A stretch of 64,000 bases of DNA from Cenococcum geophilum. Lineage: Eukaryota. This document shows, piece by piece, positions 1,525-39,581 of the stretch (its first letter is position 1; each line of letters begins with the position of its first letter). The translations under genes were made by a program, and so were the position numbers. The notes under the pieces were generated by a model. The model was not told where the DNA came from. It searched no databases and worked only from the letters and a program-made list of their open reading frames with translations. The stretch is taken from positions 13,516,001 through 13,580,000 of the forward strand of contig CP158635.1 of the NCBI GenBank assembly GCA_050273025.1, in the 5' to 3' direction.

Positions 1525-4500
1525 TGTTAAGAATCGGCCTTCTAGTGGCGTAAGGAGGCTAGTAAAGCCAGCCTCCTTAATATTATACTATATAGCCACT
1601 AGTCTTTCCCTAAATAGATAAATTAAGCAATTAAAGTACTATATTTTAATAGGTTATAAGCCTAGATTATATAAATTAAATTAGCTAAGTTCTACTATAC
1701 TTTATAATTAACTATATAACCTACTAAAAGAATATATTTTAGAGAAGAGTCTACAGCCTTATAGCTATTTCCGCTATATACCTCTATAATATATATAAAC
1801 TAATTAAAATAAAAAGGCACGGAAAAAGGATTCTAGAAAGACTTTCTATAAAGGTAGCTAGGTACTAAGACGCTAAAAACCTAACCTTTTAAATCTCTTC
1901 CGAAACACTAAACCCCTATACTAGCCTTTCTATTTTATAAAAACAACTATATATCTAAACTTAAAATAGTTATATACTCTATTAAAATCCACTATAATAG
2001 TAAAGAAATTAATACCTTAACGATTATACCAAAGGCCTAAAAAACCGATTTTATACTAAGGCCTTAACCTTTATAACTAGTATAGTTTTACCGCTTCCTT
2101 AATATCTTCCTCTACCCTTATATATTTAAAGATCTAAAGAAAAATAATACTAGTAATATCTTTACGGGGGACCTTAAAGACTATAACTTTAACCTTAGCA
2201 CTATACCTAATTACTCTAGTAATTTAGATAGCTCCTTAGCCTCTAATAGTACCCTCTTTATAGCCAGCCTAACTAAACTCTTTAGTCTTAAAGTCCGAAC
2301 CCCTTCTTAACTACCCTATAATACCTTAGTTATACCTATCCTATTAAATACTCTAGAGACCTCTAAAACTAAAATAAACAAAGAATATTCTTAACCCTTT
2401 AACACTATATACAAATCTATCGAACTTAAAGGAGTAAAGACGCTAAAACCCTAAAGCTCTACTACCGTTAAAGACTCTAAACCCAATACTATAAACGTCT
2501 CACCTTTACCTATCCCCTCTAAACACCCTAAACGTCCTAAACCTTAATAATTAAACCTATTCCCAATAAGCCTAAGAACCCTTTATTAGTCTTACTAAAG
2601 ACATCTATAGTTAAGGCGAAAATAAGCTTTATAACTAAAAGGGGAACTAAAGGACTAAATAAGAAGAAAAAAACTAGAATCTACTATAGAATAGATAGAA
2701 TTTACCAAGTAGATATGCCTTTACTTATTAATAAATAAATATAAAGATCTACTTAAACGGAACGCTAAAAGACCAGAATAAGGGACCCTATTAAAAGCAA
2801 CCTATAAAACTAAGTTAAACACCTAGCTTAATAAATAGGAATAAGCATACAGCATTATCTAAAGTAGACTTGGTTATAACGCCATAAAAGAGGTTTAAGA
2901 AATTAAAAATATAGATAAGATCTTTACTAAGCTATAAAAACGTTTTCGTCTAATAGGAAGTGCAGTCTACTAAAACCTTAAAAGACGTTACTAGAAGGTT
3001 ACCCTAAATACCTATAAAGGAGTAATAAACTACGTGGAAAAGCTATAAGAAGTACAAATAGAGATTATAGAGCTCGACCCTAACTATATAATTAGTAAAA
3101 TCTCCCTAGTTAGTAAATTTCTAACAGGACTCGGCCTAAACTACAATATATTCCTAACCTCTTTCCACTAAAAATACTCCCTTCTACTAGAATATGATAA
3201 AAAGAATATGATTATAAAAGCAGCTATAATATTAAAAAAAAAGCTATATAAATAGTAGAAATGGAAGAATAGAATATAAAGGGACGGGAAGATAATAAGA
3301 CTGCCCTACTAGCAATCTCCTAAAATACCTATAAAAAAAACAAAGAGTTATAAGTACTGCTATAAGCTCTACCATATAAAAGACAAGTGTTAAAAACTAT
3401 ACCTAAACCTTAGAAAAAAGCACCGCGAGGAAAAGTATAAGGAAAAAAAAAGAGGAAACGAAGTAACTCCTATAGTAAGAAAAATAAGAAACCTAAGAGC
3501 AATAAACCTATAGAAGAAAATAAAATAAAACTAATAGTAGGACTAAGCTACTCCGTATTAGATAGCATAGAAGCTATTTACCTTATAGCAGCCGATACAG
3601 ATATAAACCTTACGGCGACCTTTTTCCTTAACTTAGGCTGCTTCGCATTAGGAAATTTTTTTTGGCATATTGTTACAGTTTGCGGCAATTTGCTGCAAAC
3701 TGTACGATCGCGGCAGTGGCCTATAGTGGTTAACGATTCGCATAAACAGCACGTTTTGTAGCAAATTTATAGCAGCTGCTAGTAAAACGCAGTAAAATAC
3801 CTAAACACTAAACCAGCACCAGCACTTTAAAATTAAATCGTGTGAATTATACAAATTGTATAAATCGTATAAATGATATAAATTGTATAAATTGTATAGA
3901 TTGTATAGATTGTATAGATATAATATCTTTATAAATTATTATAAATTCCTATAGATTTACAGATTGTTATAATATACTTTTTAAATATATTTATATTATA
4001 ACTATATAAAATAGAGCCAAGAGGGGAGAACCTCCCATAGAGGCTCTAAATTGTATTTTAACAATATATACTGATTTCCTAACTAGGCCTAGTGTCTACT
4101 AACCTACCTACCTGCCTACCTGCCTACCTGTCTGTCTATCTGTCTATCCATCTATACCTACCTATCTATACCTACCTGTCTATATCTGCCTACCTGTTTA
4201 TACCTACCTATCTATGCTACCTTAATTTAATTGATCGATTAAATTATTTATAGTGTTCGCCAGCTGGTCGTTGTTGTCTAGCTTTAGCAGCGGTTGTCTA
4301 GCTCTGGCGACGGTCGTTTAGTTTTAGCGATGGTCGTCTTCTGGCGGCCGTTCTAGTGCCTCCCTAGATAGGGAGAATATAAAAAAGGAAGGGTAAAAAT
4401 AAGGTGGCTACCTAGGTGTATAAGGGGTATACTTAGCAGACACGTATAAACTCCATATAGAGCTTTATTAGAAGCTGCATAAAGCTTTGCACAGAGCTCC

Positions 4501-5852
4501 CCTAAAGCTCTACACGGAGCTCTACTAAGGCTCTGCACAGAGCTTCCCTAAAGCTTTATACGAAGCTCCTTTAAAGCTCTATATAGAGCTCCACCAAGGC
4601 TCTACACTCCCTTAAAGCTCTACGCGAAGTTTTATTAAAGCTTTACACGGAGCTTTATATTTACTATAATATTTACTATAAAGCTCTATATATAAAGCTC
4701 TACATAAAGCTTTACATTAAGAAAATTTAAAAACAATAACTTTATAGCCAAAAATTGGGGTCTGCGAAACCTGCGTAAGTCGCGATTTTAGCAATTTGCG
4801 GTAATTTGCAGTGATTTGCTTTAAACACACAGATAGGGTAGGCGCGTGCATAAGCAGCCTGTGTGTTCGCAGCAGATTGCAGCAGATTGCAGCAAATCGC
4901 CAAAATTGCGACTTACGCAGGTTTCGCAGATCCCGATTTTCGCTTACCCAAATTTTTTTCCTAATGTCTACTACTCTAGCTGCTAAAAAGAAAACTTTAT
5001 AGAACTATAATGCTATACTAGTAGACTATTTAGGGGCTTTATAGAAGCGCGGGCAATACTAGAAGTAATTAAGACTATAAAACTATCCTGCCTTATTAAT
5101 AATAAAAACGTAAACCTATACCTATATAACACTCTCTATATTTTAAAAGGGGGTATTAATCTAATCTCTATATTAAAACTATAGGTAAAAGGAGTAAAAA
5201 TAGGGTTTAATAACAATAACATAACTATTATCATAAAAGGAACAAAATCTAAAGTATCCCTATTTTATAGCCTATACGCTTTTAATATCTAACAATTAGA
5301 GCTACCCCTAGGACTAACTATCTATATAGTTACTACTATATAGTATAAAATCTGGTATAAAAGAATAGGTTATATAGGGGAGTGAAATCTATAAAAACTT
5401 AAGATAATGTTAACTAGAATAGACCTACCTTTAAATAACTGCGTATATATTCTATACGTCTAAAGATAAATAAAAGAGAAGCTATATAAAAATAAGTTTA
5501 AACTAGGAACTTACCCACTTAAATTTATCCATACTAATATCGTTAGCCCATTTTCCGTTATAGATAATAACTAAAGCTAATATTAGGTTATATTCCTTAA
5601 TAACTATATATAGATAGTTAAAGCTTACTCTATTACTAAGAAAAGCGAGTTCTTTTATTATTTTTAACGTCTTATAGAAAAATACTCCTAACCTAAACAC
5701 CGTTATTAACGCATTAGACTTAACTAGGGAGAAGAAAACCGGTTAAATTAATTCTATACATTCTATATAGATAAAGATATTAATATTAAAGTTATAGCTA
5801 TAAAACAACACTAATAGAATAAAGCCGCTAAATGCTTAAATAGAATCCTTAT
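1525..5852 (+). mobile_element. Ty1/Copia LTR retrotransposon, 5' part only (LTR, gag, protease, integrase), RIP-inactivated; no RT/RNase H half in the window
   Basis: LTR 1525-1651 followed by GGTTATAAGCCT (RIP form of the fungal Copia GGTTATGAGCCC start); gag knuckle CKYCHKxYHxKDKC ~3350-3392; protease FLDSGC ~3624-3641; WHKRMGH ~5353; IHTDIVGPF ~5530; QQNxAAExLNRIL ~5810-5850; integrase directly follows protease. Confidence 0.85.
3646..4966. mobile_element. Non-autonomous TIR DNA element (possibly CACTA/CMC-like) inserted in the Copia protease
   Basis: Termini CATTAGGAAATTTT...TTGG and CCAAATTTTTTTCCTAATG; Copia frame resumes after 4966; internal CTACCTGC, GACGACC-type and AAGCTCTAC repeats homologous (inverted) to 27018-29417; TSD not clean (TCG/TCT). 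Confidence 0.75.
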
Positions 5853-6620
5853 TGTTATAGGACTTCCCTATAACACTTTATACACATCTACCTATTTCCA
5901 CCGACTTAGTAACTAAAGACCGACTATAAGACTATAACTTGCCGCAATCTATGACAATCTAACAGCAATCTGCCGCATTTTGCTATATTCTACTAAGTTC
6001 TACTAAGTTTCACTAAGTTCTACTAAATCCTGCTAAGTTCTACTAAATCCTGTTAAGTTCTGCCAGGACTACTACCTAAATCCTATTCTGCTCTATATAT
6101 ATATTAACTAAGCAATTAAGTCCATAATATATACCCTTTCTTCCCGTTTTCCTACCTTCTTTCTATATATAACGTCTTAATCTTATTACACAGTTTATAT
6201 ATATAGCTTAATAATATCTACTTTGCTATATATTACCGTCGCTTATACTTACTCCGTAATACTATATTGCGTTAAACCTATACCTTATACCGCCTTAATT
6301 AGTATATAAAATAACCTAAAAGCCCCTATGTCTATAAAAGACCTATACGCTATATTTACTAAATAAATAGAGACTCTATAATAAGCTTTTACGGACACCC
6401 TCGCCCGTTAAGAAGTCTGATATTATAAAATTAAATCTCTAAAAAAAAGAAATTAAAGAGATCCGCCGAAACCCACTGTCTGCCCTATTATTACTCCTAC
6501 TTACCACCACCAGTATTAACCTATAAACACTAGATAAAGAGAACGTGTTTAAAGCTGGCTCCTTAACCCTAAATTTACTAACTAGTACCTCTAGAAAGAA
6601 GTAAACCTTTAAACCGGAAA
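5853..6620 (+). mobile_element. Truncated LTR retrotransposon, probably Gypsy: LTR 5853-6190 plus start of gag
   Basis: TGTTATAGG...CTTATTACA block interrupting the Copia integrase; internal CTAAGTTCTA repeats; downstream gag-like frame ending FKPEK at ~6620. Confidence 0.55.
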
Positions 6621-7499
6621 AGTAACAGTCCGACATCTAAGCGGGCTTAGACTGCCTAGGCCACGCGCGCTTAGGCTAAATCTTAACGTTGCCACCAAAG
6701 ATAAGCCCCATTCTCAGAAAAGTTAGCAAGATTCTATATACGGCTTAGTTAATGCCTAGAAATACCTAGTACGCCTTAATATAAGATAGGGTGTGGAGTT
6801 AGGCTTACTTTAAAAGTATAAGATAATATATCGTATTTTATATATTTTCTAAAAAATAAATATACGTTTGGTCCTTTTTCTAGTACTTAATAAACTGTTA
6901 TAATAGAACCTAGCGCCAGGTTTCCAAAGGCACGTAATTACTAGTAAAATTGGCTTAAAGCTTCTTTAAGACTAAAAAGTAACCGTCTGGTAACCGTCTA
7001 GTAACAGTTTAGTAGAGGTCTAGATATAGTAAAGGTAACTATTCTTAAGGGGTGCTACTAGGAATTTGGCCTTATCTACTAAATTTTCTAAAAAAAATCT
7101 TAAAAGCGGGCATGCGCTATAAGCACGAATTTTTTAATATAGTAGATACTAAATCTTATTATAAATTCTAAATGCGCACTTATAATTTATTAGAAAAAAC
7201 GAGAGGAAAAACCGTAAAAAAGTTTTTTCATTTTATTGCGCTAATTAAGATCATTATTATCCTAAGGCCGAGATTCCCCTTTAAGTTCTTAGTATTTCTA
7301 AGCAATTTAGTAATTACTCTTATATAATAATAATTCATTGCTTAACGTCCGATTTGGATCCCTATTAGGCCCACGCGGACTACTCCTTATTTACATATGG
7401 GGAGAAAACTCTATTTAAGAAAAATAAGAAAACCCCGTGATCCATCTCCCCGCCTTTTAGGACTCGCCTACTTAGCGCCTATGAGTTGCCTATAGTGCT

Positions 7500-10400
7500 C
7501 TACTACCTTACTATTTAACCTTTTTAGGAACCACTGCTGCCGTAATAAGCCTACAGACGCGCTAGTATTATAAACTATTACTTTACTACTGTAGAGTTAC
7601 TAGGGGGCACCTACTGCTTGCCTTTTTGCCTTCTATTACTATTTCCCTTATAACCTAGAACTAATTTAGTATATTTTAACTAATAAGCTACTAGGTAACC
7701 GCCTTAAGGCCTTTTTATATTAAGAGCAGTGTATTATAGTTCTCTATACCAGCTGCTAAAAGTATTATTTCTTAATTAGTATATAGGGGGCATAGCAGTA
7801 TTACGTATTTTGGTGTCTGTCTTAGCCAGCCATATTTATATCTCGGGCTACCTACTAGGACACCTACCCAGTAAAGCCAATCTTTTAGTCCTATTATTCC
7901 TGTTCTTAAGAGTGTTGCTATTATATTTTCTACCTTTGTTAGGCCTTCTCGGAGCCCTTAGGTATTTACCCCCTATAGCATTAACCATGCTATAGCTTGG
8001 GTTCGTCTTGCCTAAGTTAGCCTCTATACCTTTAACTCCTATTTACCTCTCCAGCGTTAGTCCAACCAGTATTATATTACGGTAGATAGTTTCCTGGCGT
8101 TCTTATATATTCTACTTTAGCTCCTTTCTCTATCTTACTGTTATCTTTACTAACCTCTTATATATCTCCCTTCCTCCTCTATATAGGCCTAGGCCCTAAA
8201 GCGGCACTATTCTTCTTCTACTTTTTTTACCTATTTCTCTAATATCTCTTCCCTACTTTAGGGTTATTGGTTTATTCTCCTACAGGGCACCCTAGGGTCC
8301 CTCTATAGTTTACTTAGGCGTATCTTAATATACTTTATAATATTAGAGTTATATTTATTTTACGTTCTTTATATTACAGCGGCTTTAATATATAACTATA
8401 GGGGGGGAATATTGGATTCCTTCTTAAGCAGTACTATAGCCGTTCACTTGTACCCGCCTGTGATACTCCAAAGGTAGGCTGTTTGGACCTTTTAAAGTAG
8501 TTTAAAAAGTAATTTTAGGGGGCCCTTTTTAGTTTCTCTAATGGCCCAGATACTGGATCCATATATTATAGTTAGCCAAACAACTGCTGTATATAGTAGG
8601 CGTAACCTTTAGAAACATAGACCCTATATAGAATTAATAATCCTAAATAAAGCGATAAACTGTGCTTGGCCTTTACGGGCCGCTTATACTATATATACGC
8701 TCTACTAAAGCTTACTGTCTACCCATACTCCTAATACCCTTAGGCCCTAAACTAGTTAACCCCTAAAGCCTTAGATACGAATTATATACTAGAGATCTAT
8801 AGATTAGTTGCGTTTTCTTATAAAATAGATTAGCTAGTATTTCTCTAGTAAGAATTAGACTCTATGGTGTTTTGCCTACTTTATATAAGTGTTATAGGCT
8901 TTCTCTAGTGTTCTATAGTTCTCTACGGCTGTTAGCCCGTATATAATTAGGTTTATATTATTAACAAAGCCTATCCCCTAGGTCGCCCCTTTCTTAAAAA
9001 AGTTAAGCAGGTTGCTTATAAAGAAAAGGAAGAGTATAGGCGAGAGGGGTAATCCTTGTGGTATTCCTATTATAACTGCAATAGGGGGGCTCTAGTATCC
9101 ACTAAAGACCAGTAATGTTTCTTTCTAGCCTATAAACCCTTAGATAAATTATATAATCCATTCTAGGAAGCCCTTTGCCCTAAGGATATATAGGAGACGC
9201 TCGTAGGGTATATTATTATAGGCACTACTAATATTTAGGCTAAGCATTAATACTACAAAGTCCTTTCGCATCGCCTATGTAGATTTAATAGTGGCAGCGA
9301 GTAGCGTAAGTACTAATAGTATTAAGCGGTTCTTTCTTGCCCCTATTTGGCTTTATGGTAATAGGGCGTGTTCCTTTACCATATCTACTATGCGTTCTGC
9401 TATTACCCTTTCTAAGATCTTACTAAGGGTGTTTTCTAAAGCAATAGGGCGGTAGCTTTTTAGGATTAAGTAATCTGCTTTGCCTTCTTTTCATAAAATA
9501 ACCGTTGTTATAGATCTTCTAAGTTATAGGTAGTAGCCTATAGTAAAGCATACTCTAGCTATATCTATAAGCTAAGGTGCTATAAGTGGCCTATAGGTTT
9601 TTAGGGCCTTATTTGGAATCCTATCTAGTCCTAGTACTATATTATTTAAAAGGCGGCTAATAGTTCTAGCCATTTCCTCTATTATTATGTCGCTGTCGAC
9701 CTATAGGCGAGTTACCAGTGTTTCGCCCGTAATATTACTAAGGTCTACTAGAGCTAGTTAGGGGAAGAACCTTTCTATAAGGATTTTTGCCTTCTTATTG
9801 TTGTTATTTATAGCCTATAATTCTCCTACTTTTTATAGGGGTGGTAGGTATAGGTCTTCTACTAGGTGCCCTACCTTTTTCTTTACCCATTTCGCTATAT
9901 CCTAAAGGCCCTTATTATAGGGGAGGCTCGGGTTAAAAGTATGCTTATTTATAAACCATCTCCAGTTATTCCTTACTTCTTTTTTTAGGGTATTCTTTAG
10001 CTAGTTTCTTATGTCTTTATATTGTCTCTTGTCTTTAGGGTCGTGGCTACTTATATATTTCCTTCTTACTTATTATTAGCTGGTAACCAGAACTGCGTAT
10101 TATATAGACTATATATATCGCGCGTAGGGGCCCAGTTTTAAGATCGGGCAGTGCTCTTTTAGCCTATTTTTAATTGCTGCCTAGATCCTTTCTAGTCTTC
10201 GGTTAATTTCCTTAGGGGTAGTTAATAGGCCTCGCTCGTTTGGTATTAGGTAGATTTCTTCTAGGTCTTAGAGTTGTTATTTAACTACATTAAGGAAACT
10301 GTCTGTCTTAAGCTTCCTTATTACGTATCTTTTTCTATTTAGTTGCGCTTTAGTATCTAGGTCTAGCTATATCTAAATAGGGATATAGTCTAAGGTAAGT

Positions 10401-11030
10401 GCCCATTCTTCTTTGGGGTTACACCTTTTAAGTCTCTAGTATAGGCCTTTATCCATAAATATAAGGTTAATTATACTTCTAGCGGTGCCTTATTGCCATA
10501 TAATTACTCCTAAGGGGGTAGCTAGCTTAAGGCCCCAGATATCTATAGCTCTTAGTAGGCACTCTAACTATTAGTCTGCAGCAATATAGATACCCCCCTA
10601 CTACGGGTAGTGGAGGTTTATATCTCCTAATAGAATAAACTCTATACCTTTAGTTTTTAGTAAGCTTATTACTAATATAATATTCTCTATTTATAGGACC
10701 CCTTCGACCCTAGGGTTATATACATTAATAATTTATACCGGTCCCCTATATATTTAAATTATTATAACTATAATATCTAGGTTAACTGCCTGCCATAACT
10801 ATAAGGACAGGCTAATAGCCTTGCTAATTATAAAGCACACATATATAGCTGCTTTTAGTTTATATAGGAGCTGGAATTCTTAGGGGCAGTATGTTGATTA
10901 TGTGAAGGTATTATAATATAGCTCTTATATAGCAAGGATATAGTATTTCTCTAGGTCTAGACTATCTAGTAGGGGCCTTGCAAGGCGGTGGTTTATGTTG
11001 CCGCAGTTATATTATATAATGGATAGGTAG
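7500..11030 (-). pseudogene. LINE ORF2 (APE endonuclease plus reverse transcriptase), RIP-disrupted
   Basis: With RIP reversed: IIQYNC ~11010, LAIQEP ~10925, LGDINLHHPWWGG ~10610, YRPIALENTLSKILE ~9440, LDISGAYD ~9225, GIPQGLPLSPILF ~9045, GFVDD ~8965; 3' end approximate. Confidence 0.9.
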
Positions 11031-11034
11031 CGGA

Positions 11035-12785
11035 CCCCCGGCGAGGGTCCTTTAACTCTCCTTTATTCCTCGCTTTTTCTATTTCCACTTTCTCTAGAAT
11101 ATTTAGAGCTTCTATCTCTTATATCTATACCCTAGTTACTACTTATTTTATATAGAGCTTTCTATTCCCGTGTCTTATATTCCTGTTAGCGCTTCTATAT
11201 CTAAATCTATTATTATTACTAGTTCTTCCCCTGTTCTTACTAGTTGGCTATATACCCTTTATAGGTTGGCTGCGAATATTATATTTACCGTATTAAGTCT
11301 AATTCTTAATTATCCTAGTCTTAAGCCTACTATTGCTGTCTATAGGGGTCTTCCTACAGGGCGTCCTCTCCCTTGTGTCCCCTGTGACCCTTATGTCCCT
11401 AATTAGTCTAGTGATATCGCGCGGCGTTGCTTCTAGCCCGTTAAGGCTTAGGATGGCTGGCCTAGCCCTCTAGTATTAAAAGTAGGAAACGCTAAAAAGG
11501 CACCTGCGTCCCCCTAGCTTATCGCCTATTATTTCTATTCGTATAACCTAGCGTACAGTTATTCCCGCAGCTGTTAAGCCCTTGCCTTCCGTCTCCTATA
11601 TTTAATACAGTCTTCTCTCTCCTACGCCTTATGTATACTTTAGTGGCAGTTTACGCATTTTATTTGGTCTTAATTTAAGCAATGTCTCGTATTATGGGGG
11701 CCTATATAGTAGCTACAGCACACCTATGCTGCGTATATAGATTAGGTGTGTCCCTATTATATATAGCGATAGCATTATTCTAGGCATAGTCTATGGTTAT
11801 AGAGCCTTGTGTTATATATAAGGCCATTTATAATTATTCCTTTTTAGATAAGGAGTTTTTGCATTCCTAGTATATATATACTAACAATAAGGGAGCCATG
11901 CGTTTATCCGGCGTCTCCCTAGCGAGTCTCCGGCAACCCTTATATCCTCTTATTATTCTTATTATATGCTTAATTTACATTTTCCTATTAAAGCCATTAG
12001 ATTTGGGTGATTTTAAGTCCTAGTATAAGGCGTTCCGTTTGTCTTACTATCTCCTATATAATTACTATATTGTCCGCCTAGCGTCCCTTTTTTACCCTAA
12101 GGCTTATAGGAACCGCTGGGACTTCGACTAAGTAATCCTCACGGAGTACTTTTATACTAATATATTCTCCTAGCCTATCCCCTACCCTTACGGCTTATTC
12201 CTTTACCTATTAGTCCTTTAGGGTAACTCTAATATCTCCGCTCTTAAGGTGTTAGACTATAACAGCATTATAAACCTCTTTACGTATCTTTATAAGGACT
12301 TCTGTTTCTAATTATCCCCTAAGCCCCTCTGCTTATTCTATGTTTAGTTATATTATAATTATATGCCCGGTTATTAACTTAAGGGGGGTAGGTTCCCTAT
12401 GCTATAAAAGCGCAGCTATAGCGGCCCAGGTGCGGTTCGCCGGTAAGGGGGGGTTATACTTATTTTTAATTTTGCTTAGCCGTTAAAGGATTTAATTGAG
12501 GGTTTGCTAGAGGGGCGCCTAAGGTTCGCTAGACTGGCGGAGCTATTCTACTAGCTATATTAGTTCGTTATAGCTAACGGTTACTCCCCTATAATTCTAG
12601 ATATTAGACGCATCTAATAGGCTTTATATTTTATTAGATGCCTTTTTAATAGAGGTATTTCCGCTTTATAATGTGGTATTCGCCCGTCTTTATTATGGAG
12701 GGCCATTGCTGGGCGTAGTTCTAGCGGTCGCGCGCGAGTGCGAGCCACCGTCGTTCGACGTATGCCTCCCCTGCGATGCATGCAT
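11035..12785 (-). pseudogene. LINE ORF1 (gag-like, CCHC knuckles), RIP-disrupted
   Basis: ATG at 12785 (MHASQGRHTSNDGG...); QCYRC-x2-WGH and further knuckles at ~11600-11780. Confidence 0.8.
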
Positions 12786-12894
12786 CTTAGGGGGATTCTC
12801 TAGGTGTTTTTCAGGGTTCTTTTGGTTGGTTTTAGTCTTTTTGGGCCGGGTGCAGCAAGAGCTCCAGTCAGTTTTTGAGGTCTCTTAATATAGG

Positions 12895-14108
12895 AAATGT
12901 AAACTATTGTTTAGAATTTATTACCTAGTTATTAATTACTCTTATATACCTCTACCTTTAAACTTTTTTAATACACAAAAACTTCGTTAAAACCCAGCAA
13001 TTTTCCTTAATATTTAGCTCTTGCCCTTGCAACATCCTCAGTATTAATTATTTAACGTTTTAACTAAGCTTTTAATACTATTTCTATCCATTTTATATAC
13101 CTACTCTACTTAGAGCTCTTATTAACCGTAGAAAAGTCCTCCTAAAAAGTAGTTTCACTAGAATATATGCTATATATTAATATAATAGTCTATAAAATAA
13201 AGTATAATTAGTAAATATAGGTAGGGCTTTTAATATAAATTAGATATATTAATACCTTTTGCTCTAAATAGCCCTTTTTTAAGGTTTTCTAAGACTATTT
13301 TACTACGCTACGGTATAATTAAGCCTAATATTTTAATGGAATTGGAATACCTTTTACTTTTATAAGTAAAGAGTAGTACCAATTATAAAATAATTAAGAA
13401 ATATTATTAGTATAACTAATAATTCCGTGCGGCCATATAATATCCTTATTTAAGAACTTTAGTAGTTTTCCGTTTATAGTAATTTCCCTAAATAGGTAAT
13501 AGTTTTCTTAAAGTAATAGAGAAGATTTAAGGGTATTTAACTGGAAAATTAAGGTTAATACTTAAGGTTAGTTAAGGTGCTAAACGGTATTAAACTAAAA
13601 TAGATTTCGCGTAAGTTCTAAGAAAGTCTCCTAAAGACCTCGCTGCACTAAAGTAAAATCTCTAACAGTCTTAATATTTAAGTTAAAATTAAATAAATTC
13701 TGCCTTTAAATAGTAACCTTTGCTTAGAGAGGTAAAGCGCGGTCTCTTTCTTAATGCAGCCGAGATATATTAGAGGAATTCTTAAAGACTAAAAGAGTAT
13801 AAGAGTGGGCCTTAGAGGAACTAAAAAGTAAAGGCATCTTTTAGTATTTTTAAAGATCATTTATACGGTGTAGGTGAATTCTTAGAGGATTAATATCCTC
13901 TATATTAGATTCTTTAAGAAACTACACTATTTCTCCTTTATCTTACCTAAATAAATTAATTATGTTTTTCTATTAAGGATATACTCTCTTTATAGTTATA
14001 CTAACATTTCCTTATAAATTGCGATCTCTTTATATATTCTTCTTCCTAATTAAATAAATTCCTTAGTAAACCTAAGAAGCCGTTTATTTTAAATGGTAAC
14101 TATAGCAT
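12895..14108 (-). pseudogene. Intron-containing gene of unknown function, divergent from the tyrosine recombinase; RIP-disrupted, 3' end abuts LINE copy 1
   Basis: ATG at 14108; GT..AG introns 13900-13946 and 13190-13255 with CTAAT branch-like sites; with RIP reversed: KGIPIPLKYWAQLYR...W, FWEDFS...EDVARARAEY...VFVYRK. Confidence 0.65.
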
Positions 14109-14444
14109 CTTAAGCTTTATTTCTTGTTAAACCTAAGGTCCCTCCTATACCCTAATTAAGCTGCTACTTTTTTCTTTTTAATAAAGCTATACTATAAAAA
14201 CAATTATTATAATAGAGATTTTCGAGATTTTATTAAAATATCTTAAAATTTTAGATATTTAATTTTAGATTTGTGTAGCGAAAATAGCTATATTAGCGGT
14301 TTTTTCTATAAACGCTAATTATTTCTTAGATCTCTTTAATAAAGGACTTACCCTGCACCTTATTCCTACTAAAAACCTTCTAATTGTTTTTTACACACTA
14401 CCAGCCTTAGAAATTTTAAGAATTACTTCCGTTCTTTTTAGAAA

Positions 14445-15990
14445 ATGTCTTATATCTCTTAAATTAACTCTTTTCTTTCGTTATTAGATACTAAAACTCC
14501 CTTAAATCCTATATAGAAAGCTATAGAAAATGCCGAAATTAATAAGGAACTTAATAAGCAACAAGAGATTTTAGTAATAGAAACTAACAATTCTATTAAA
14601 ATTAACAAGTTATTTAAAACTGTATATAAGGCTATAGAGGGTGCATTAGCACCTATAACTTTATTAGATTATATAGGGTATATTTCCTATATATTCTAAG
14701 AATTTAGTTAAAAACATTTATATCTAATAAGGTAATTCTAGGCAAATTAAAAAGTATATTAGATTTATAAAAAAGGAAGCCCTAAAGCTTAAAAAGTTTA
14801 TTAAAAAGCTAAATAAAGACGTTTTACCATTAATATGCCTATGGATTCAGTTTATTTATAAAAAGGCCGAACCTAGCTTATCTTCTTAGTTACTATAAGA
14901 AAGTGAGAATAGAACCTAGTTATATGCGCAAAAAATGCATACAATAGTCTCCTATTTCTATGCTTATGAGGTTCGTCTTAGAAGTAATAGATTTTCTAAG
15001 AAAAGTAATAGAGAATAGATAGGAAACCTAACACTTTTAGATATTGTGGTAAGATATATAAGAAGTCTACATAGACAAAAGGTATATTTTCTTTCTCAGT
15101 AATACCATTATTTTTTTACTATTTACTATAACTAACGCTATTTTATAGACTTGTGTAGGAGAAACGCAAGAAAGCGTAAGAGTAATTACTGCGTTAAAGC
15201 TTTAAGAGCTTTATAAATATAACGCAAATTTTAAATATATATCTTAGTTATCCCGTCTTCCTATAAACCAAGGAGGATGGATTTAAGGAGGTGTTTATTA
15301 GTAAATTATAATAAGCCTTATATATGCGATAGCTTTTGCCTATTTTCTTAGATTTAATAAGGTTCTGTATATTAAAGTTTAGCATATTCAAATCCACGAC
15401 CTTACTACTAGAAAGGTTAAACTTATACTTAATTTTTAGAAAACATATTAAACAGGAGGTAAGATCTTAAATTTTTAAAATATAACTACTTAATCTTAAC
15501 GGCTTTATAAAAATCTAACCCTTTTTTCTCTACTTTAACCAAGAAGAACCCTGGCTTAATATACCAACTCTCCTACTTAAATAGCTAGATATCTTAAAAG
15601 TTACGTTAGGTTACTTATTTAGACCATTTAATACATTTAACCAGCCAATGGTTAGTAAAAATGTTAAATTAGTAGGTTTTTTATTATTTTAATATTTTAT
15701 CTAGGCCTCTAGTGTTTTTCTTTAGAATTTTTAACAAAATCTTATTAATATTAGGGAAGATCCGCTTATTTATAGGGGCCACTCCTTTTAAAGGGGTGGC
15801 GTTCAGTATTTTTCTAGTGAAAAATACTGGGGAATTCGGAAATTATATAGTTGGGGAAGCTGGAGCTTAGAGTTTAATTCTTTAACAATTATACGGTATC
15901 TTCTTAGTAGAAATAATAATCTAGTTAAATCTCACAAGGATTATATAAATCCTAGGGCTTAAAAAGGTACCTTATATCCTTATTATGGAA
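14445..15990 (+). pseudogene. Tyrosine recombinase (Crypton-like DNA breaking-rejoining enzyme), multi-intron, RIP-disrupted
   Basis: Introns 14678-14741, 15082-15148, 15459-15510 (acceptor mutated), possibly 15672-15704, preserve the frame; with RIP reversed: GNPTLS..V.RY.RSLHRQK, LRFDEVL (15347), RKTHQTG (15437), HSFRRGGVQ (15780), WGGWS (15852), RYLL with candidate catalytic Tyr at 15897; 3' end approximate. Confidence 0.85.
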
Positions 15991-16479
15991 GATCTTATAA
16001 CTATACATAATAGATATAGCTATATATTTAGCGTAAGCAGTAGGGTTATAATAGTTATAATATTTATTATAATAAGGCCTTATTATTTTCCTAAATAGAC
16101 TTACTACCTAATTACTAGCCTTCTTATACTATTAAATAATTAACTTTTAATACTCCTATTTAAACTAATAGTATTAGTTAATAACTATTACTTAAACTAA
16201 TTATATAAAAAAGAGAGCTTTTATCTAACCCTTATATAAATATAATATAAATAGATAAACTAAGTAAACTATAGGCCTTATTAAATCTTTAAAAGTATTT
16301 AGGTAATATCTATTTAAATTAATAAAATATTAATATTAATATTTAACTAATCTCTTATAGGTTATTATCTACTTGTTTTTCTTAAATAAATAGTCTCTTA
16401 ATAGGGCTATATTTTATATTTACTAAAGAGTATATACTAGGCACTTATTTTATCTAAAATGCCTTTTATTAGAATTATA

Positions 16480-16820
16480 TATAAGAGGCCAGCTTGACCG
16501 GAACGTATGATTATCTAATTGACAGTGTTACTGGTAAGTAGAAGGTAAGTCAAAGGTAAGTTAAAGGTAAGTTAAAGGTAAGTTAAAGGTAGAATAAGTT
16601 TTACGTATTAAAGGACAAATGCTTTTAACCACTTCTATTTAGAGACTAATTGCTAGTTCTTCTTTAGAGGGGAACTAGCTTTCTATATATTCCTTTTAAG
16701 ACGCTAGTAAAACCTTTCGCCCCTAACCTATCTAACCATGTCTTCTAGAATATAGATAGGATATAGATGAAACCTCTTACCGTCTTATCGGATATATACC
16801 TCTTAGGGGATTCCGTTATA
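16480..16820 (-). repeat. 3' LTR of Gypsy A (341 bp)
   Basis: Direct repeat of 31826-32155 with four GGTAAGTTAAA-type units instead of three. Confidence 0.95.
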
Positions 16821-18327: not shown

Positions 18328-19602
18328 ACTTTAGGGATGCCTTTATTCTAAGCTTTAGTAATAATCTATATAAACGCAGTATACTACTATAATCCCCATA
18401 TATAATAAATGGGTGGTATTCCTATAGGTGCCTTATAATTCCTTAAAATCTCTAATTCTTTATAGGCTGTCCTTTTGCTCCTCTTCGTACTATTAACTTT
18501 ACTGTATATCTCCGGTGCCAGGCCAGATACTCTCCTTTTATCCCTAAGGGATCTTTCTAAATCCCTAAGGCCACTTCTTATAATGCTACTGCTTTTTCTT
18601 AAACAGCGTCTTCTTTAAATAGTATCCCTAGTAGTTCTCCTATAGATCTTTATAGGCTTCCTTTTATAGGATTTTAGGATCCCTGTTATAATAGCGAAAC
18701 GTTTCCGTTCTTAATGCCTATGCTTAATCCTATGGTTTTAATTTATAGGGTCTTCTCTATCGCTTCACCTATAGCATATCCGGAACCATTTTTAAGTCTT
18801 TACCTTTGGTTCTTAGGAAGGTTTTAATTGCGGTGTTGTATCTTAGCTAAAGGTACTTTTTAAGTTCCTAACTATTATACGCCTAGAAGTATCCTTCCTA
18901 ACGAACTAAAAATTCGCGCTTCTTCTGGCGCTATCTTTAGTCTAAAATGTCTTCTACATTCCATTCTAGTTCCCTATTAATTTCGCTAGGTAGGGGTAGT
19001 TCCGCACTATCTTTTCTCTAGTATAGCTCTAGTAAGGAAATATAAAATATAGGATATATTAGATAAGATTTCGGTAATTCTAATTTATAGGCTTGGTTTC
19101 CTTTAGTTTTTTTAACTATCTTAAAGGGTCTGAGCCACCGGTGATTCAGCTTCTTCTTAATACGTTTTATTTAGATATTTTTTATAAATAGTAAGACTTC
19201 GTCTTCTATCTCAAATTCTTTTAGTATATATTTTTTATTATAGTACCTTTTTTGCACGGCCTGGGCGTCTAGTAAATGCTTTTTAAGTTCCTCTCTACGA
19301 ATTCTTATTTGCTTAATTCTTTCGGACGCTACCAGTGCCTCTTTTTTAGGAACGATGTCCTTAATATTTTAGGGGTTATTTACTTTTACCCCAAACAATG
19401 CTTTATAAGGGGTTATTTTTATACTGCTATAGATGCTTATGTTATATATATGCTGCGCTAGAGTTAACTATAATGTCTAATTATCTTGTTAATAATTAAT
19501 ATAGTAGCGGAGGTAGTGTTCTAACAACGTATTTAGACACTTTATTTACCCGTCTATTTACGGGTAGAAGGTAGTGCTTATCCTTTGCCGTATTTTTAAT
19601 AA

Positions 19603-22600
19603 TAATAATTCATTGCTTAACGTCTAATTTGGATCCCTATTGGGCCCACGCGGACTACTCCTTATTTACATATAGGGAGAAAACTCTATTTAAGAAAAAT
19701 AAGAAAACCCCGTAATCCATCTCCCCGCCTTTTAGGACTTGCCTACTTAGCGCCTACGAGTCGCCTATGGTGCTCTACTACTTTACTGTTTAACCTCCTT
19801 GGGAACCACTGCTGCCGTAATAAGCCTATGGACGCGCTAGTATTATAAACTATTACTTTACTACTATAGAGTTACTAGGGGGCACCTACTGCTTACCCCC
19901 TTGCCTTCTATTACTATTTCCCTTATAACCCGGAACTAATTTAGTATATTTTAACTAATAAGCCACTAGGTAACCGCCTTAAGGCCTTTTATATTAAGAG
20001 CAGTGTATTATAGTTCTCTATGCCAGCTGCTAAGAGTATTATTTCTTAATTAGTGCGTAGGGGGCATAGCAGTATTACGTGTTTTAGTGTCTATCTTAGC
20101 CAGCCATATTTATATCTTAGGCTACCTACTAGGACACCTACCTAGTAAAGCCAATCTTTTAGTCCTATTATTCCTATTCTTAAGAGTATTACTATTATAT
20201 TTTCTACCTTTATTAGGCCTTCTTAGAGCCCTTAGGTATTTACCCCCTATAGCGTTAACTATACTATAACTTAGGTTCGTCTTGCCTAAGTTAGCCTCTA
20301 TACCTTTAACTCCTATTTACCTTTCTAGCGTTAGTCCAACCAGTATTATATTACAGTAGATAGTTTCCTAGCGTTCTTACGTGTTCTACTTTAGCTCCTT
20401 TCTCTATCTTACTATTATCTTTACTAACCTCTTATACGTCTTCCTTTCTCCTCTATATAGGCCTAGGCCCTAAAGCGGCACTATTCTTTTTCTACTTTCT
20501 TTACCTATTTCTCTAATATCTCTTTCCTACTTTAGGGTTATTAGTTTATTCTCCTACGGGGCACCCTAAGGTCCCTCTATAGTTTACTTAGGCGTGTCTT
20601 AATATACTTTATAATATTAGAGTTACATTTATTTTACGTCCTTTATATTACAGCGGCTTTAATATATAACTATAGGGGGGGAATATTAGATTCCTTCTTA
20701 AGTAGTACTATAGCCGTTCGCTTATACCCGCCTATAATACTCTAAAGGCAGGCTATTTAGACCTTTTAAAGTGGTTTAAGGAGTAATTTAGGGGGGCCCT
20801 TCTTAGTTTCTCTAATGGCCCAAATACTGGATCTATATGTTATAGTTGGCCAGATAACTACTATATATAGTAGGCGTAACCTCTAGAAGTATAGACCCTA
20901 TATAGAATTAACAATCCTAGATAAAGCAATAAACTATATTTAGCCTTTATAGGCCGCTTATGCCGTATATACGCTCCACCGGAGCTTACTATTTACCTAT
21001 ACTCCTAATACCCTTAGGCCCTAAACTGGTTAACCCCTAAAGCCTTAGATGCAAATTATATACTAAAGATCTATAGATTAGTTATATTTTCTTATAAAAT
21101 AGATTAGCTGGTATTTCTCTAGTAAGAATTAGACTCTATAACATTTTGCCTATTTTATATAAATGTTATAGGCTTTCTCTAGTGTTCTATAATTCTTTAC
21201 GGCTGTTAGCCCATATATAATTAGGTTTATATTATTAATAAAGCCTATCCTCTAGGTCGCCCCTTTCTTAAAAGAGTTAAGTAGGTTGCTTATAAAGAAA
21301 AGGAAGAGTATAGGCAAGAGGGGTAATCCTTATAGTATTCCTATTGCAACTATAATAGGGGGGCTCTAGTATCCGCTAAAGACTAGTAATATTTCTTTCT
21401 GGCCTATAAACCCTTAGATAAATTATATAATCTATTTTAAGAAGCCCTTTACCCTAAGGATATATAGGAGACGCTTATAAGGTATATTATTATAGGCACC
21501 ACTAATATCTAGGCTAAGTATTAATACTATAAAGTCCTTTTATATCGCCTATATAGATTTAATAGTGGTAGTAAGTAGCGTAAGTACTTATAGTGTTAAG
21601 CGGTTCTTTCTTGCCCCTATTTAGCTTTATAGTAGTATAGTATATTCCTCTACTATATTTACTATGCGTTCCGCTATTACCCTTTCTAAGATCTTGCTAA
21701 GGGTGTTTTTTAAGGTAATAGGGCAGTAGCTTCCTAGGATTAAGTAATCTACTTTACCTTCTTTTTGTAGAATAACCGTCGTTATAGATCTTCCGAGTTG
21801 TGGGTAGTAGCCTATAGTAAAGTATGCTCTAGCTACATCTATAAGCTAAGGTGCTATAAGTAGCCTATAGGTTTTTAGGGCTTTATTTGGAATTCCATCT
21901 GGTCCTAATGCTATATTATTTAAAAGGCGGCTAATAGTTTTAGCTATTTCCTCTATTATTATATCGCTGTTAACCTATAGGCAAATTACTAGTATTTCGC
22001 CCGTAATATTACTAAGGTCTACTAAAGCCGGTTAGGGAAAGAACCTTTCTATAAGGATCTTTGCCTTCTTATTATTATTATTTATAGCCTATAATTCTCC
22101 TACTCTTTATAAGGGTAGTAGGTATAGATCTTCTGCTAGGCGCCCTACCTTTTTCTTTACCTATTTTGCTATAGCCTAAAGGCCTTTATTATAGGGGAGG
22201 CTCGGGTTAGAAGTATACTTATTTATAAACTATCTCTAGTTATTCCTTACTTCTTTTTTTAGGGTATTCTTTAGCTAGTTTCTTATATCTTTATATTATC
22301 TCTTATCTTTAGAGTTATAGCTACTTATATATTTCCTTCTTGCTCGTTATTAGCTGGTAACTAGAACTGCGCATTATATAGACTATACGTGTCGCGTATA
22401 GGGGCCTAGTTTTAAGATCGGGCAGTGCTCTTTTAGCCTATTTTTAATTACTACCTAGATCCTTTCTAGTCTTCGGTTAATTTCCTTAGGGGTGGCTAAT
22501 AAGCCTCGCTCGTTTAGTATTAGGTAGATTTCTTTTAAGTCTTAGAGTTATTGTTTAACTATATTAAGGAAACTGTCTATTTTAAGCTTCCTTATTATAT

Positions 22601-25143
22601 ATCTTTTTCTATTTAGTTATACTTTAGTATCTAGGTCTAGCTATATCTAGATAGGGATATAGTCTAGGGTAAGTACCTATTCTTCTTTAGGGTTATACCT
22701 TTTAAGTCTCTAGTATAGGCCTTTGTCTATAAATATAAGGTTAATTATACTTCTGGCGGTGCCTTATTGCCATATAATTACTCCTAGGGGGGTAGCTAGC
22801 TTAAGGCCCTAAATATCTATAGCTTTTAGTAGGCACTTTAACTATTAATCTACAGTAATATAGATGCCCCCCTACCGTGGGTAGTGGAGGTTTATATCTT
22901 CTAGTAGGATAAACTTTATACCTTTGGTTTCTAGTAAGCTTATTACTAATATAATATTCTCTATTTATAGGACCCCTTTAACCCTAGGGTTATATACATT
23001 AATAATTTATACCGGTCCCCTATATATTTAGATTATTATAACTACAATATCTAGGTTAACTACCTACTATAACTATAAGGATAGGCTAATAGCCTTGCTA
23101 ATTATAAAGCATATATATATAGCTGCTTTTAGTTTATATAGAAGCTGGAATCCTTAGGGGCAGTATATTAATTATATAAAGGTATTATAATACGGTTCTT
23201 ATATAGTAAGGATATAATATTTCTCTGGGTCTAGACTGTCTAGTAGGGGCCTTATAAGGCGGTAGTTTATATTACCGCAGTTATACTATATAATGGATAG
23301 GTGGCGGACCCCCGGCGAGGGTCCTTTAACTCTTCTTTGTTCCTCGCTTCTTTTATTTTTACTTTCTCTAGAATATTCGGAGCTTCTATCTCTTATATCT
23401 ACACCCTAGTTACTACTTATTTTATATAGAGCTTTCTATTCCTATGTCTTATATTCCTATTAGCGCTTCTATATCTAAATCTATTATTATTACTAGTTCT
23501 TCCCCTATTCTTACTAGTCGGCTATATACCCTTTATAGGTCAGCTATAAATGTTATATTTACCGCATTAAGTCTAATTCTTAATTGTCCTAGTTTTAAGC
23601 CTACTATTACTGTCTATAGGGGTCTTTCTATAGGGCGTCCTCTCCCTTATATCCCCTATAACCCTTATATCCCTAATTGGTCTAGTAATATTACGTAGCA
23701 TCGCTTCTGGCCCATTAAGGCTTAGGATGGCTAGCCTAGCCCTTTAGTATTAAAGGTAGGAAATGCTAGAAAGGCGCCTGCGTCCCCCTAGCTTATTGCC
23801 TATTATTTCTATTTATATAACCTAGCGTACAGTTATTCCCGTAGCTATTAAGCCCTTACCTTCCGTCTTCTGTATTTAATACAGTCTTCTCTCTCCCACG
23901 CCTTATATATGCTTTAGTAGCAGTTTACGCATTTTGTTTAGTCTTAATTTAAGCAATATCTTATATTGTAGGGGCCTATATAGTAGCTGTAGTATACCTA
24001 TACTGCGCATATAGATTAGGTGTGTCCCTATTATATATAGTAATAGTATTATTTTAGGCGTAGTCTGTAGTTATAGAGCATTATATTATATATAAGGCTA
24101 TTTATAATTATTTCTTTTTGGATAAGGAGTTTTTACATTCCTAGTATATATATGCTAACAATAAGGAAGCTATACGTTTATCCAGCGTCTCCCTAGCGAG
24201 TCTCCGGCAACCCTTATATTATTTTATTATTTTTATTATATACTTAGTTTATATTTTCTTATTAAAGCTATTAGATTTAGGTGATTTTAAGTCCTAGTAT
24301 AAGGCGTTCCGTTTATCTTACTATCTCCTATATAATTACTATATTATCCGCCTAGCGTCCCTTTTCTACCCTAAGGCTTATAGGAACTACTAGGACTTTA
24401 ACTAGGTAATCCTTACGGAGTACTTTTATGCTAATACATTCTCCTAGCCTATCCCCTACCCTTACGGCTTATTTCTTTACCTATTAGTCCTTTAACTCTA
24501 ATATCTCCGCTTTTAAGGTATTGGACTATAACAGCGTTATAGACCTCTTTACGTATCTCTATAAGGACTTCTATTTCTAATTATCCCCTAAGCCCCTCTA
24601 CTTATTTTATATTTAGTTATATTATAATTATATACCCGTTTATTAACTTAAGGGGGGTAGGTTCCCTGTGCTATAAAAGCGCAGCTACGGCGGCCTAGGT
24701 GCGGTTTGCCGATAAGGGGGAATTATACTTATTTTTAATTTTGCTTAGCTATTAGAGGATTTAATTAAGGATTTACTAGAGGGGCGCCTAAGATTCGCTA
24801 GACTAGCGGAGCCATTCTACTAGCTATATTAGTTTGTTATAGCTAATAGTTACTTCCCTATAATTTTAGATACTAGACGCGTCTAATAGGCTTTATATTT
24901 TATTAGATACCTTCTTAATAGAGGTATTTCCGCTTTATAGTGTGGTATTCGCCTATCTTTATTATAGAGGGCCATTGCTAGGTGTAGTCCTAGCGGTCGC
25001 ACGTAAATGCAAGCCACCGTCGTTTAACGTATGCCTCCCCTGCGATGCATGTATCTTAGGGGGATTCTCTAGGTGTTTTTTAGGGTTCTTTTGGTTGGTT
25101 TTGGTCTTTTTGGGCCAGGTGCAGCAAGAGCTCCTTTTTTTGG
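19603..25143 (-). mobile_element. Tad1-like LINE copy 2, inserted in the Gypsy A integrase
   Basis: Homologous to copy 1; 18-bp TSD TTGCCGTATTTTTAATAA (19585-19602 and 25144-25161); 9 extra bases at the 5' junction. Confidence 0.95.
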
Positions 25144-27590: not shown

Positions 27591-27644
27591 TTAAGGTAAA
27601 GTTATATGCTAATTACGCAAATGAATTTTTATACAGTTTTATTA

Positions 27645-28107: not shown

Positions 28108-28224
28108 CGGGTCCCCGCTATATTCCCAATAGCCTCTCCTATATAGCCACCTTATTTTTTTTATCCATCTATCCTTCTTTATATCCTCCCTACCTAGGGA
28201 GGCACCAGAATGGCAGCTAGTAGA

Positions 28225-39580: not shown

Positions 39581-39581
39581 A

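Follow-up and report, generated by a model that had tools for sequence, protein, structure and literature searches.

The gene pair and its decay

The stretch of DNA analyzed here, in the following called the window, comprises 64 kb of the Cenococcum geophilum genome (contig CP158635.1 of assembly GCA_050273025.1, positions 13,516,001 to 13,580,000 of the forward strand), and all coordinates are counted from its first letter. At 12890-16340 it holds the remains of two divergent genes: a tyrosine recombinase (YR) gene on the plus strand and, upstream of it on the minus strand, a second gene that we refer to as the partner. By similarity, both could be shown to be homologous to intact genes that neighbor each other on opposite strands in many sequences from fungi and soil metagenomes. 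The locus is probably a dead copy of a small Crypton-type YR DNA transposon from a two-gene lineage, mutated by repeat-induced point mutation (RIP), and the partner would be the accessory factor of this element. The features of the region are as follows, with most matches referring to L061, the closest full relative.

12890-13186, minus strand: last exon of the partner gene, C-terminal helical part with an FxY.K....V.K motif (tblastn, L061:431-748 minus strand against 13186-12935, E 2e-12)
13253-14062, minus strand: main exon of the partner gene (tblastn, L061:794-1609 minus strand, residues 1-270, E 7e-16)
14005-14200, minus strand: first exon of the partner gene (tblastn, L061:1552-1761 minus strand, residues 25-70 against 14142-14005, E 6e-4)
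14201-14480, no strand: divergent intergenic region between the first homologous blocks of both genes, presumably a bidirectional promoter
14481-14690, plus strand: tentative exon 1 of the YR gene, N-terminal region (frame with 1 stop in 70 codons)
14740-15084, plus strand: exon 2 of the YR gene, core-binding/SAM-like part with ICLWI, AQKM and GN.. (tblastn, L061:2244-2669, E 8e-12)
15158-15457, plus strand: exon 3 of the YR gene, catalytic Arg I and Lys (tblastn, L061:2650-2997, E 4e-12)
15501-15671, plus strand: exon 4 of the YR gene with PWL.VPTLL..WL and YLFRPFN (tblastn, L061:2996-3580, E 6e-41 over 15501-16007)
15672-15704, plus strand: relic of a short in-frame intron of the YR gene, GTAGG...CTAG (11-residue gap against P0002)
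15705-16010, plus strand: last exon of the YR gene with the natural stop at 16008-16010 and a decayed CxxCGRxCxC tail at 15975-16007
16011-16340, no strand: non-coding stretch 3' of the YR gene, alignable to the metagenome locus L018

On the plus strand, 14481-16010 is, judged from its protein-level matches, an intron-split YR gene that was wrecked by RIP. The homologous blocks 14740-15084, 15158-15457, 15501-15671 and 15705-16010 shift frame at plausible GT..AG introns, and motifs in the order R-K-HxxR-W-Y are found at 15347-15899. The spliced YR gene thus lies where a preliminary description of this DNA, made without database searches, had placed it. The motifs quoted there (LRFDE, RKTHQ, HSFRRGG and WGGWS) are absent as literal letters; the DNA reads LRFNK (15347-15361), F*KTY* (15434-15451), HSF*RGG (15780-15800), WGSWS (15852-15866) and IIRY (15888-15899), with asterisks denoting stops. 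They are de-RIPed readings and agree with the family consensus LLRxDE, RKTxQ, HSFRRGGxQ and WGGWS. The arginine codon of HxxR is now a stop, and the nucleophilic tyrosine is still recognizable in IIRY.

The individual exons are matched by further relatives. For the tentative exon 1, a by-eye comparison without a score indicates that KTVYKAIEGALAPITLLDY resembles KSVADSIRGAHSRSTLVGY of P0006. Exon 2, with 4 stops in 115 codons and a donor AAG/GTATAT at 15081-15089, is matched by residues 102-154 of P0031 as well, and exon 3, with 8 stops in 100 codons, by residues 12-112 of P0003. Exon 4 is 84% identical over 49 amino acids (aa) to P0007, a fragment from C. geophilum. The intron relic at 15672-15704 is missing in intron-less relatives and occurs in a longer form in L061 and P0007: at this site L061 has 22 extra residues, the first being Val (GTx) and the last QQQG, while P0007 and P0101 read through. 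At the position of the last exon, the DNA of L018 retains TGTCCTTATTGTGGAAGATCTTGTGATTGTGCATAA, and blastn aligns 15317-16340 of the window to positions 1-1077 of L018 with 74.7% identity; past ~16340, only AT-rich low-complexity similarity is left.

On the opposite strand, 12890-14200 is by the same kind of evidence the divergent partner gene, as wrecked as the YR gene and separated from it by a gap of roughly 250-340 bp. Matches to the gene upstream of the YR in L061 fall into three blocks (14142-14005, 14062-13253 and 13186-12935), which imply two introns, in agreement with the divergent, two-intron and Trp/Tyr-rich gene proposed earlier. Its first exon is without a recognizable start codon, and the basic N-terminus KRKK*QLN corresponds to MAPKLQRKTQRYN of L061; the reading frame suggests that this exon reaches ~14200. 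A short first intron lies somewhere in 14062-14005. The main exon carries 22 stops in 270 codons and is of low complexity in its first half, followed by a conserved W-rich domain at about 13450-13253 (NWYYS at 13384-13370, KY*A*LY at 13333-13313) with the motif DW..YW..W..W.W. In the last exon, residues 2-85 of the 106 in L061 are aligned with 6 stops in 84 codons, and a weakly similar tail extends to ~12890. Altogether, tblastn of the partner open reading frames (ORFs) of related loci gave 18 matches on the minus strand of the window, with L061 as the best; 16 further partner ORFs from other loci match 13507-13169.

Premature stops amount to 18 in 373 aligned codons of the YR gene and 31 in 400 codons of the partner gene. 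Every one of these 49 stops in 773 aligned codons is TAA or TAG, which fits RIP, as this process removes TG, and in the alignments with L061 they fall mostly on W, Q and R positions. Together with the dinucleotide ratios of 12937-16465 (TpA/ApT 1.50 and (CpA+TpG)/(ApC+GpT) 0.44, the whole window being similar), these stops confirm the RIP damage noted before. Equally correct was the remark that neither gene appears among the listed ORFs: only four ORFs in the whole window reach 120 aa, and all of these lie outside the pair. Since the copy bears 18 and 31 stops in its two genes, has a stop in place of the HxxR arginine and is abutted on its left side by a LINE-like repeat (LINE, long interspersed nuclear element), it can do nothing. 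Taken by itself, the copy in the window is an ordinary, dead relic, valuable as a pointer to a large family of intact relatives.

A Pfam search with the six frames of 12900-16201 (X at stops) delivered zero matches, and none of the 121 candidates that a word-index protein search proposed for the RIPed YR tail scored, because RIP had destroyed the shared words. With phmmer, the last 141 YR codons (X at stops) retrieved 132 proteins from 1.84 billion at E<=1e-3, 47 of them at E<=1e-10, a similarity well above chance; mapped back by tblastn, these matches cover 14926-16007 (plus strand) only.

The recombinase family

Full-length members of the YR family comprise 450-490 aa and end in CxxCGRxCxC, about 30-45 residues past the catalytic tyrosine. 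Across 18 aligned members the motifs around the catalytic residues (LLRxDE, RKTxQ, HSFRRGGxQ, WGGWS and TIxKYL) are conserved. Named members stem from Mycena, Pleurotus, Ganoderma, Paramarasmius, Moniliophthora, Cryoendolithus, Cenococcum and the aphelid Amoeboaphelidium. One of them, P0050 from Paramarasmius palmivorus (1063 aa), is fused to a downstream XPG_I nuclease domain (PF00867, E 4e-18). The family has no Pfam family of its own: the only Pfam match is Phage_integrase, sub-threshold in 7 of 18 proteins with a best E of 5e-4. Against the Protein Data Bank (PDB), the family profile matches Cre at E 1.1e-6 across the Arg I/Lys region, and the sole non-Cre YR among the matches is Ndc10/CBF3A at a non-significant E of 0.33.

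A quick tree of the last ~110 alignment columns of the YR was calculated from 39 rows (29 representatives of 75 related loci, 9 proteins and the window). In this tree the window is sister to L018, an extremely AT-rich metagenome contig (2379 bp, GC 0.20) that probably stems from a related fungus and represents a RIPed copy of this element lineage. Both fall into a group of seven with L061, P0002-P0004 and the Cryoendolithus protein (support of 89 in the Shimodaira-Hasegawa-like approximate likelihood ratio test, SH-aLRT). A larger YR tree, in which the window row is mis-framed, recovered the same clades.

Linkage and selection in related loci

A metagenome scan with the YR alignment confirmed 279 relatives among 399 pattern matches; of these relatives, the best 80 were retained as loci. 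Clustering of their stop-to-stop ORFs revealed recurrent companions of the recombinase: clusters C1 and C3 on the opposite strand upstream of the YR gene, C1 containing the partner ORFs that match the window, and clusters C2 and C8 on the opposite strand downstream, representing a third gene. Hidden Markov models (HMMs) of YR, partner and third gene were subsequently run against every ORF of 30 aa or more from these loci.

Of the 80 loci, 45 contain the partner; in each of them it occupies the strand opposite to the YR gene, upstream of it in 30 and downstream in 15. Where at least 1.5 kb upstream of the YR gene is available, the partner is present in 27 of 27 loci, in 24 of them head-to-head and in three downstream. 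The 35 loci without partner are mostly short-flanked; L026 and L028 have a long downstream flank without partner and less than 1 kb upstream. The linkage reported for the window in the preliminary description thus recurs elsewhere and is not refuted by the loci compared. The arrangement of the genes tracks the YR clades. In particular, the loci with a downstream, tail-to-tail partner (L011, L012, L014-L017, L019, L022, L023, L027, L031, L036, L060, L075 and L080) form one clade with four agaricomycete proteins, from Mycena, Pleurotus, Ganoderma and Moniliophthora (SH-aLRT 96). For L017, L019 and L022 of this type, the unit measures about 4.8 kb, with short tandem repeats near the left end.

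The third gene occurs in 40 of 80 loci, always downstream of and opposite to the YR gene (for example L047:4140-4676 and L039:4636-5160, both on the minus strand), and all loci of the tail-to-tail type lack it. Its product shows an invariant C..C...CGC pattern (KCxHC...CGC) and a helical tail, belongs to no Pfam family and gave a weak AlphaFold2 model with a mean predicted local distance difference test score (pLDDT) of 61.6. In the window no homologue of the third gene (C2/C8) was found by tblastn at E<=0.01, nor does L061 contain one.

Ratios of nonsynonymous to synonymous substitution rates (dN/dS) between element copies are 0.17-0.47 for the partner (four pairs), 0.13-0.23 for the third gene and 0.02-0.03 for the last YR exon. 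As far as such ratios go, both genes of the pair were shown to be under purifying selection in relatives. These data also bear on the question whether the partner, and the third gene with it, might be passenger cargo or a captured host gene, linked to the recombinase only by lying between the ends of the element. The partner is without family or assigned function, and, in line with this scenario, passages of two accounts (PMC13465315, PMC3212892) mention second genes in Cryptons that are facultative, for instance a C48 peptidase or DDE gene. However, the partner is kept across deep YR clades despite the shift from the upstream position in 30 to the downstream position in 15 loci, it occurs in all 27 loci with ample flank, its dN/dS between element copies stays within the above range, and host paralogues in annotated genomes were missing from the results of two word-index searches. 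We therefore consider a mere passenger to be quite unlikely.

Ends and extent of the element

Related families carry the pair, to which the third, Cys-rich gene may be added, within a 4.5-4.7-kb unit with short terminal direct repeats. The best defined unit is shared by L037, L039, L040 and L042 and corresponds to L040:134-4818, as pairwise blastn revealed three different left and three different right flanks around it. Its termini in L040 are AATTGGGCC... and ...GGTAGAATT, inside of which lies a 14-bp inverted pair, GAAAATACAGTCTC and GAGACTGTATTTTC; the unit starts with AATTGGGCCTTAACCGGGAC-GAAAATACAGTCTC and ends with GAGACTGTATTTTC-CGCGGTAG-AATT. AATT thus stands at both ends, extended to the 6-bp word AGAATT in two copies, and the inverted arms of L040 are 8 and 16 bp away from the AATT word. 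L056 and L070, 77% identical, repeat this plan with GAATT or GAAT and the arms CCGACAGTCC and GGACTGTCGG.

Of 22 loci checked for the heptamer GACTGTM/KACAGTC, 11 contain it 4-11 times (8 in L040), where about 1.2 occurrences would be expected. On contigs that include both ends, it is found in the left arm at conserved spacing and once or twice at the right end. In L040, an array of GACTGTC/GACAGTC occupies the subterminal ~450 bp on the left, its five copies keeping a conserved spacing (L040:167-530), and one more copy lies at 4795; the same layout was seen in L056, L070, L002, L043, L057 and L048. These heptamers are candidate protein-binding sites.

With its small size of 4.5-4.8 kb and a gene content of a YR plus one or two small accessory genes, the unit could also fit an episome, that is, a 2-micron-like plasmid or small virus-like circle which sometimes integrates and of which the window would hold an integrated, RIPed copy; inverted arms at the predicted circle junction and several contigs of about 5 kb point the same way. 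Against this, none of 44 contigs of at least 3 kb has an end overlap, the copies reside in differing chromosomal flanks beside host genes, for instance PRMT5 in L025 and a kinase of fungal type in L028, the named relatives sit on contigs of 0.06-20 Mb and no replication gene was seen among the scanned ORFs. An episome is consequently very improbable. The same 44 contigs lack terminal inverted repeats (TIRs) at their ends. Outside the three gene clusters, the related loci contain 124 ORFs of 130 aa or more; in the 58 of these that were scanned, no reverse transcriptase (RT), RNase H or integrase was recognized.

In the window, L061 is collinear over three partner and three YR blocks and nothing beyond, and the matching ends at the YR stop codon. 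The proposed extension of the element to the right, past the neighboring retroelement, is consequently not supported. The same applies to the extension to the left as far as ~6625: none of the related loci showed similarity left of 7315, a comparison of 5800-7320 with them gave only AT-rich noise with L018, and the mapped relatives are only about 4.5-4.7 kb long.

That the region (12937-16465) is single-copy in the 64-kb window and its ends were not found might suggest a domesticated or ordinary host locus, the decay of which is incidental to the surrounding block of RIPed repeats. It is established, however, that duplicated DNA is the target of RIP, and other RIPed copies are at hand: P0007, annotated in C. 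geophilum, is 80-84% identical to the window YR, and P0101, on a JGI metagenome contig, 79-86%. In addition, a single scan yielded 279 relatives, and metagenomes contain near-identical as well as 77-90% identical copies of such units with unrelated flanks. A host locus is hardly credible in the light of these copies.

The partner protein and its possible role

The intact partner proteins consist of a short basic exon 1, a disordered stretch and a conserved C-terminal region of ~185 residues with the motifs LPDPP.LSY, DW, YWKK.Y, W..IKDQW.K.K, FSY.KGG and DIAR.YR. AlphaFold2 with an alignment of 17 sequences predicts residues 110-293 with a pLDDT of mostly 85-96, and the C-terminal 185 residues reach about 90. 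A Pfam domain scan of the partner gave nothing; no peptidase, DDE or helix-turn-helix (HTH) domain was recognized.

A hint toward its function came from ESM Atlas feature searches. With the partner of L047, clusters bearing GCR1_C came first (score 0.90, 172 shared features), and with that of L031 such clusters again came first (score 0.91, 183 shared features, 18 of 30 matches). These two query proteins are about 27% identical to each other, and one of the GCR1_C clusters is commonest in Oomycota. HMMs did not confirm this, and a GCR1_C-like DNA-binding module in the partner is a lead and not a result. It is also the sole support for the DNA-binding or directionality factor that the preliminary description suggested. 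Likewise as a lead, a split arrangement is an attractive reading, in which recombinase and DNA-binding module are encoded by two genes.

Such an element might move as follows. By analogy with the scheme of Goodwin et al. (2003), which PMC3212892 quotes, the YR would recombine the two short terminal repeats and free a circle. The junction of this circle would consist of the two inverted subterminal arms around the AATT crossover, and the YR would then recombine it with a matching short word in a new target. The partner would most likely be a sequence-specific DNA-binding or architectural protein that binds the subterminal repeats and helps to assemble or direct the YR reaction. In doing so, it would replace the GCR1_C domain which classical CryptonF recombinases carry in cis. 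In its strongest form, this explanation holds that the partner is a hitherto unrecognized accessory protein of new fold, encoded by the element: it would read the subterminal repeats, and excision and integration would both need it alongside the Cre-like YR. We advance this form only tentatively and regard it as conceivable but doubtful.

Alternatively, the partner might act on the recombinase protein and not on the arms, either as a regulator or directionality factor (Xis/Rdf-like, a chaperone or a nuclear-import adaptor) or as a factor of silencing evasion. Linkage and selection speak for such a role as much as for an accessory protein that binds the arms. Moreover, no DNA-binding fold was recognized, the N-terminal half is disordered, exon 1 is basic, and elements of the L061 type have no heptamer array. 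On the other hand, two independent feature searches lead to the GCR1_C DNA-binding family, and the repeated subterminal heptamers of most head-to-head families need a reader. Thus we rate a regulator of the recombinase protein as rather unlikely.

For the preferred reading, in which the locus is a dead copy of a two-gene element and the partner its accessory, possibly arm-binding factor, several observations are unfavorable. Fold searches with the partner model gave a best E of 1.3 (Foldseek, PDB), a best Z of 3.7 with a root-mean-square deviation of 4.6 over 78 residues (VIA-wide) and a best E of 0.31 (BFVD), and the partner profile produced chance-level rows only against PDB sequences. An Atlas score near 0.9 is, according to the note that accompanies the tool, also attained by 4-10 per 100 shuffled proteins, and hmmscan with PF12550 (GCR1_C) matched 0 of 17 partners even at E<=10. 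The heptamer occurs zero times in L061, the closest full relative, and is lacking in the tail-to-tail loci tested as well. Furthermore, with a tail-to-tail partner in 15 loci, the head-to-head arrangement is not universal. Annotated homologues of the partner number five matches with a single sequence and seven with the profile, all from metagenome or read assemblies and none from named genomes, and its linkage was seen in metagenome loci and not directly in Mycena, Pleurotus or other named genomes. Comparisons with L061 and L018 did not locate the termini of the window copy or of L061. Since the ends of the window copy were not found, the placement of the partner inside the element of this lineage rests on relatives from other clades; that the lineage is multi-copy is likewise deduced from RIP and from the diverged RIPed fragments P0007 and P0101.

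Comparison with known systems

In the broad sense, a Crypton is a DNA transposon defined only by its YR (as quoted in PMC8092012). The element in the window is a Crypton in this sense, as it has a YR, no RT and, seen in relatives, short terminal direct repeats (compare also PMC13465315); the Crypton-like classification given earlier therefore stands operationally. With other Cryptons it shares mobilization by a YR only, the lack of an RT, introns, the fungal host and, in its relatives, the lack of TIRs and long terminal repeats (LTRs) at the very ends and the same 4-6-bp word at both termini. It differs by the conserved second gene on the one hand and by subterminal inverted repeats with heptamer arrays on the other, neither of which was found in those parts of published descriptions that were compared.

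CryptonF elements (Crypton-Cn1 type) encode a YR and a C-terminal GCR1_C DNA-binding domain in one protein and have 6-bp terminal direct repeats, as far as the account of Kojima and Jurka (2011, PMC3212892) is concerned. Fungal hosts and terminal direct repeats are common to both, with 4-6 bp in the family described here, and a GCR1_C-like module is a lead only. In contrast, the YR of our family lacks a fused GCR1_C domain and ends in CxxCGRxCxC, while the candidate DNA-binding module is a separate gene on the opposite strand. CryptonF in its defined sense was rejected, given that PF12550 is found in 0 of 24 YR proteins.

Second genes as such are not without precedent. The passages of PMC13465315 on this topic name C48 peptidase, DDE and HTH genes in Cryptons, and CryptonS as well as oomycete CryptonF are described with an additional C48 (Ulp1) peptidase gene there and in PMC3212892, together with MarCry-1_FO. 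These elements resemble ours in possessing a second protein-coding gene. However, the partner is without a peptidase, DDE or HTH domain and is kept across the recovered clades, not in single families.

Cre/loxP of phage P1 and the integrase of phage lambda, which uses arm-type sites plus Xis and IHF, are further systems for comparison. Cre is the best solved-structure match of the recombinase (1.1e-6), and predicted inverted arms around a short crossover as well as arm-like repeated subterminal motifs resemble these systems. Differences are the eukaryotic host, the spliced genes and the arms, which lie 8 and 16 bp off AATT and are not adjacent to it. The partner is unrelated to Xis and IHF in the fold and PDB-profile searches.

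Captains of Starships (DUF3435) and CryptonA/Glomhopper (DUF3504) also belong to fungal DNA elements mobilized by a YR; the element described here differs from them in being small and without cargo. Both assignments were rejected, as PF11917 (DUF3435) and PF12012 (DUF3504) were found in 0 of 24 YR proteins at E<=0.01 and in 0 of 18 at E<=10. A DIRS or Ngaro retrotransposon, which would combine a YR with RT/RNase H and split or inverted long terminal repeats, was rejected as well: there is no RT, and 12937-16465 contains no long repeats beyond a weak AT-rich palindrome at 16201-16457. The missing RT likewise sets the element apart from VIPER.

A targeted literature search found neither this partner family nor the three-gene form described, and nothing on ends of this kind; Repbase and the supplementary lists of PMC3212892 lay outside its coverage and may hold members. 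The family thus apparently represents an undescribed, widespread two- or three-gene variant of the Crypton type with an accessory protein of new fold.

Cryptons are poorly understood, as their ends are hard to define and their mechanism is known by analogy, and we know of no accessory factors for them. The present family offers a second gene that is strictly inherited along with the recombinase, termini that are mapped and show a clear crossover word, and repeated subterminal motifs. Recombinase, partner and about 60 bp of the ends thus make up a testable system to study how a Crypton excises and reinserts and whether it employs a phage-like directionality or arm-binding factor. If the strong form of the accessory-protein reading were true, a widespread eukaryotic family of YR DNA transposons in basidiomycetes, ascomycetes and aphelids would use an obligatory two-protein recombination machine. 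As a bolder corollary, the GCR1_C domain of CryptonF, Gcr1, Msn1, Hot1 and Ndc10 might then be a fused descendant or relative of the stand-alone partner, and a true GCR1_C link would bear on the origin of a DNA-binding domain of yeast transcription factors and of the kinetochore. For genome annotation, partner and third gene constitute unnamed families that escape Pfam and transposable-element libraries.

Genomic surroundings

The window consists of AT-rich fungal repeat DNA of the RIP type throughout. TpA/ApT lies at 1.4-2.2 across all 2-kb bins, and (CpA+TpG)/(ApC+GpT) is below 0.7 in every bin except one. Self-comparison identified a 5.6-kb repeat in four copies of ~90% identity (7315-12936, 19591-25189, 40199-45743 and 49251-54871). 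It carries RVT_1 on the minus strand, is without LTRs and has an (ATT)n-like 3' end. The first copy ends at about 12877-12888, where it abuts the 3' end of the partner gene. No RT is present inside the gene pair, as stated before; the RVT_1 at 7315-12888 belongs to this separate repeat, which is probably LINE-like and not a Gypsy element as had been assumed. A partial inverted copy occupies 54858-55445, and the fourth copy is flanked by the 13-bp duplication CTCTACTATATTA.

A decayed Ty3/Gypsy fragment was identified at ~19020-19200 on the minus strand by a Tf2-type integrase SH3 domain (PF24626, E 4e-11); it sits between the gene pair and the next 5.6-kb repeat. Directly 3' of the YR gene, the weak palindrome at 16201-16457 is 66% self-complementary over 274 bp, and the following segment, 16466-16818, is 87% identical to 31809-32153. 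Finally, degenerate tandem and inverted repeats at 27600-28150, 32500-34800, 38600-40200 and 4440-4740 are mutually 60-73% alike and satellite-like in appearance; some of these blocks are located where the GC content rises to 0.45-0.56, in islands at 33-36 kb and 48-49 kb.

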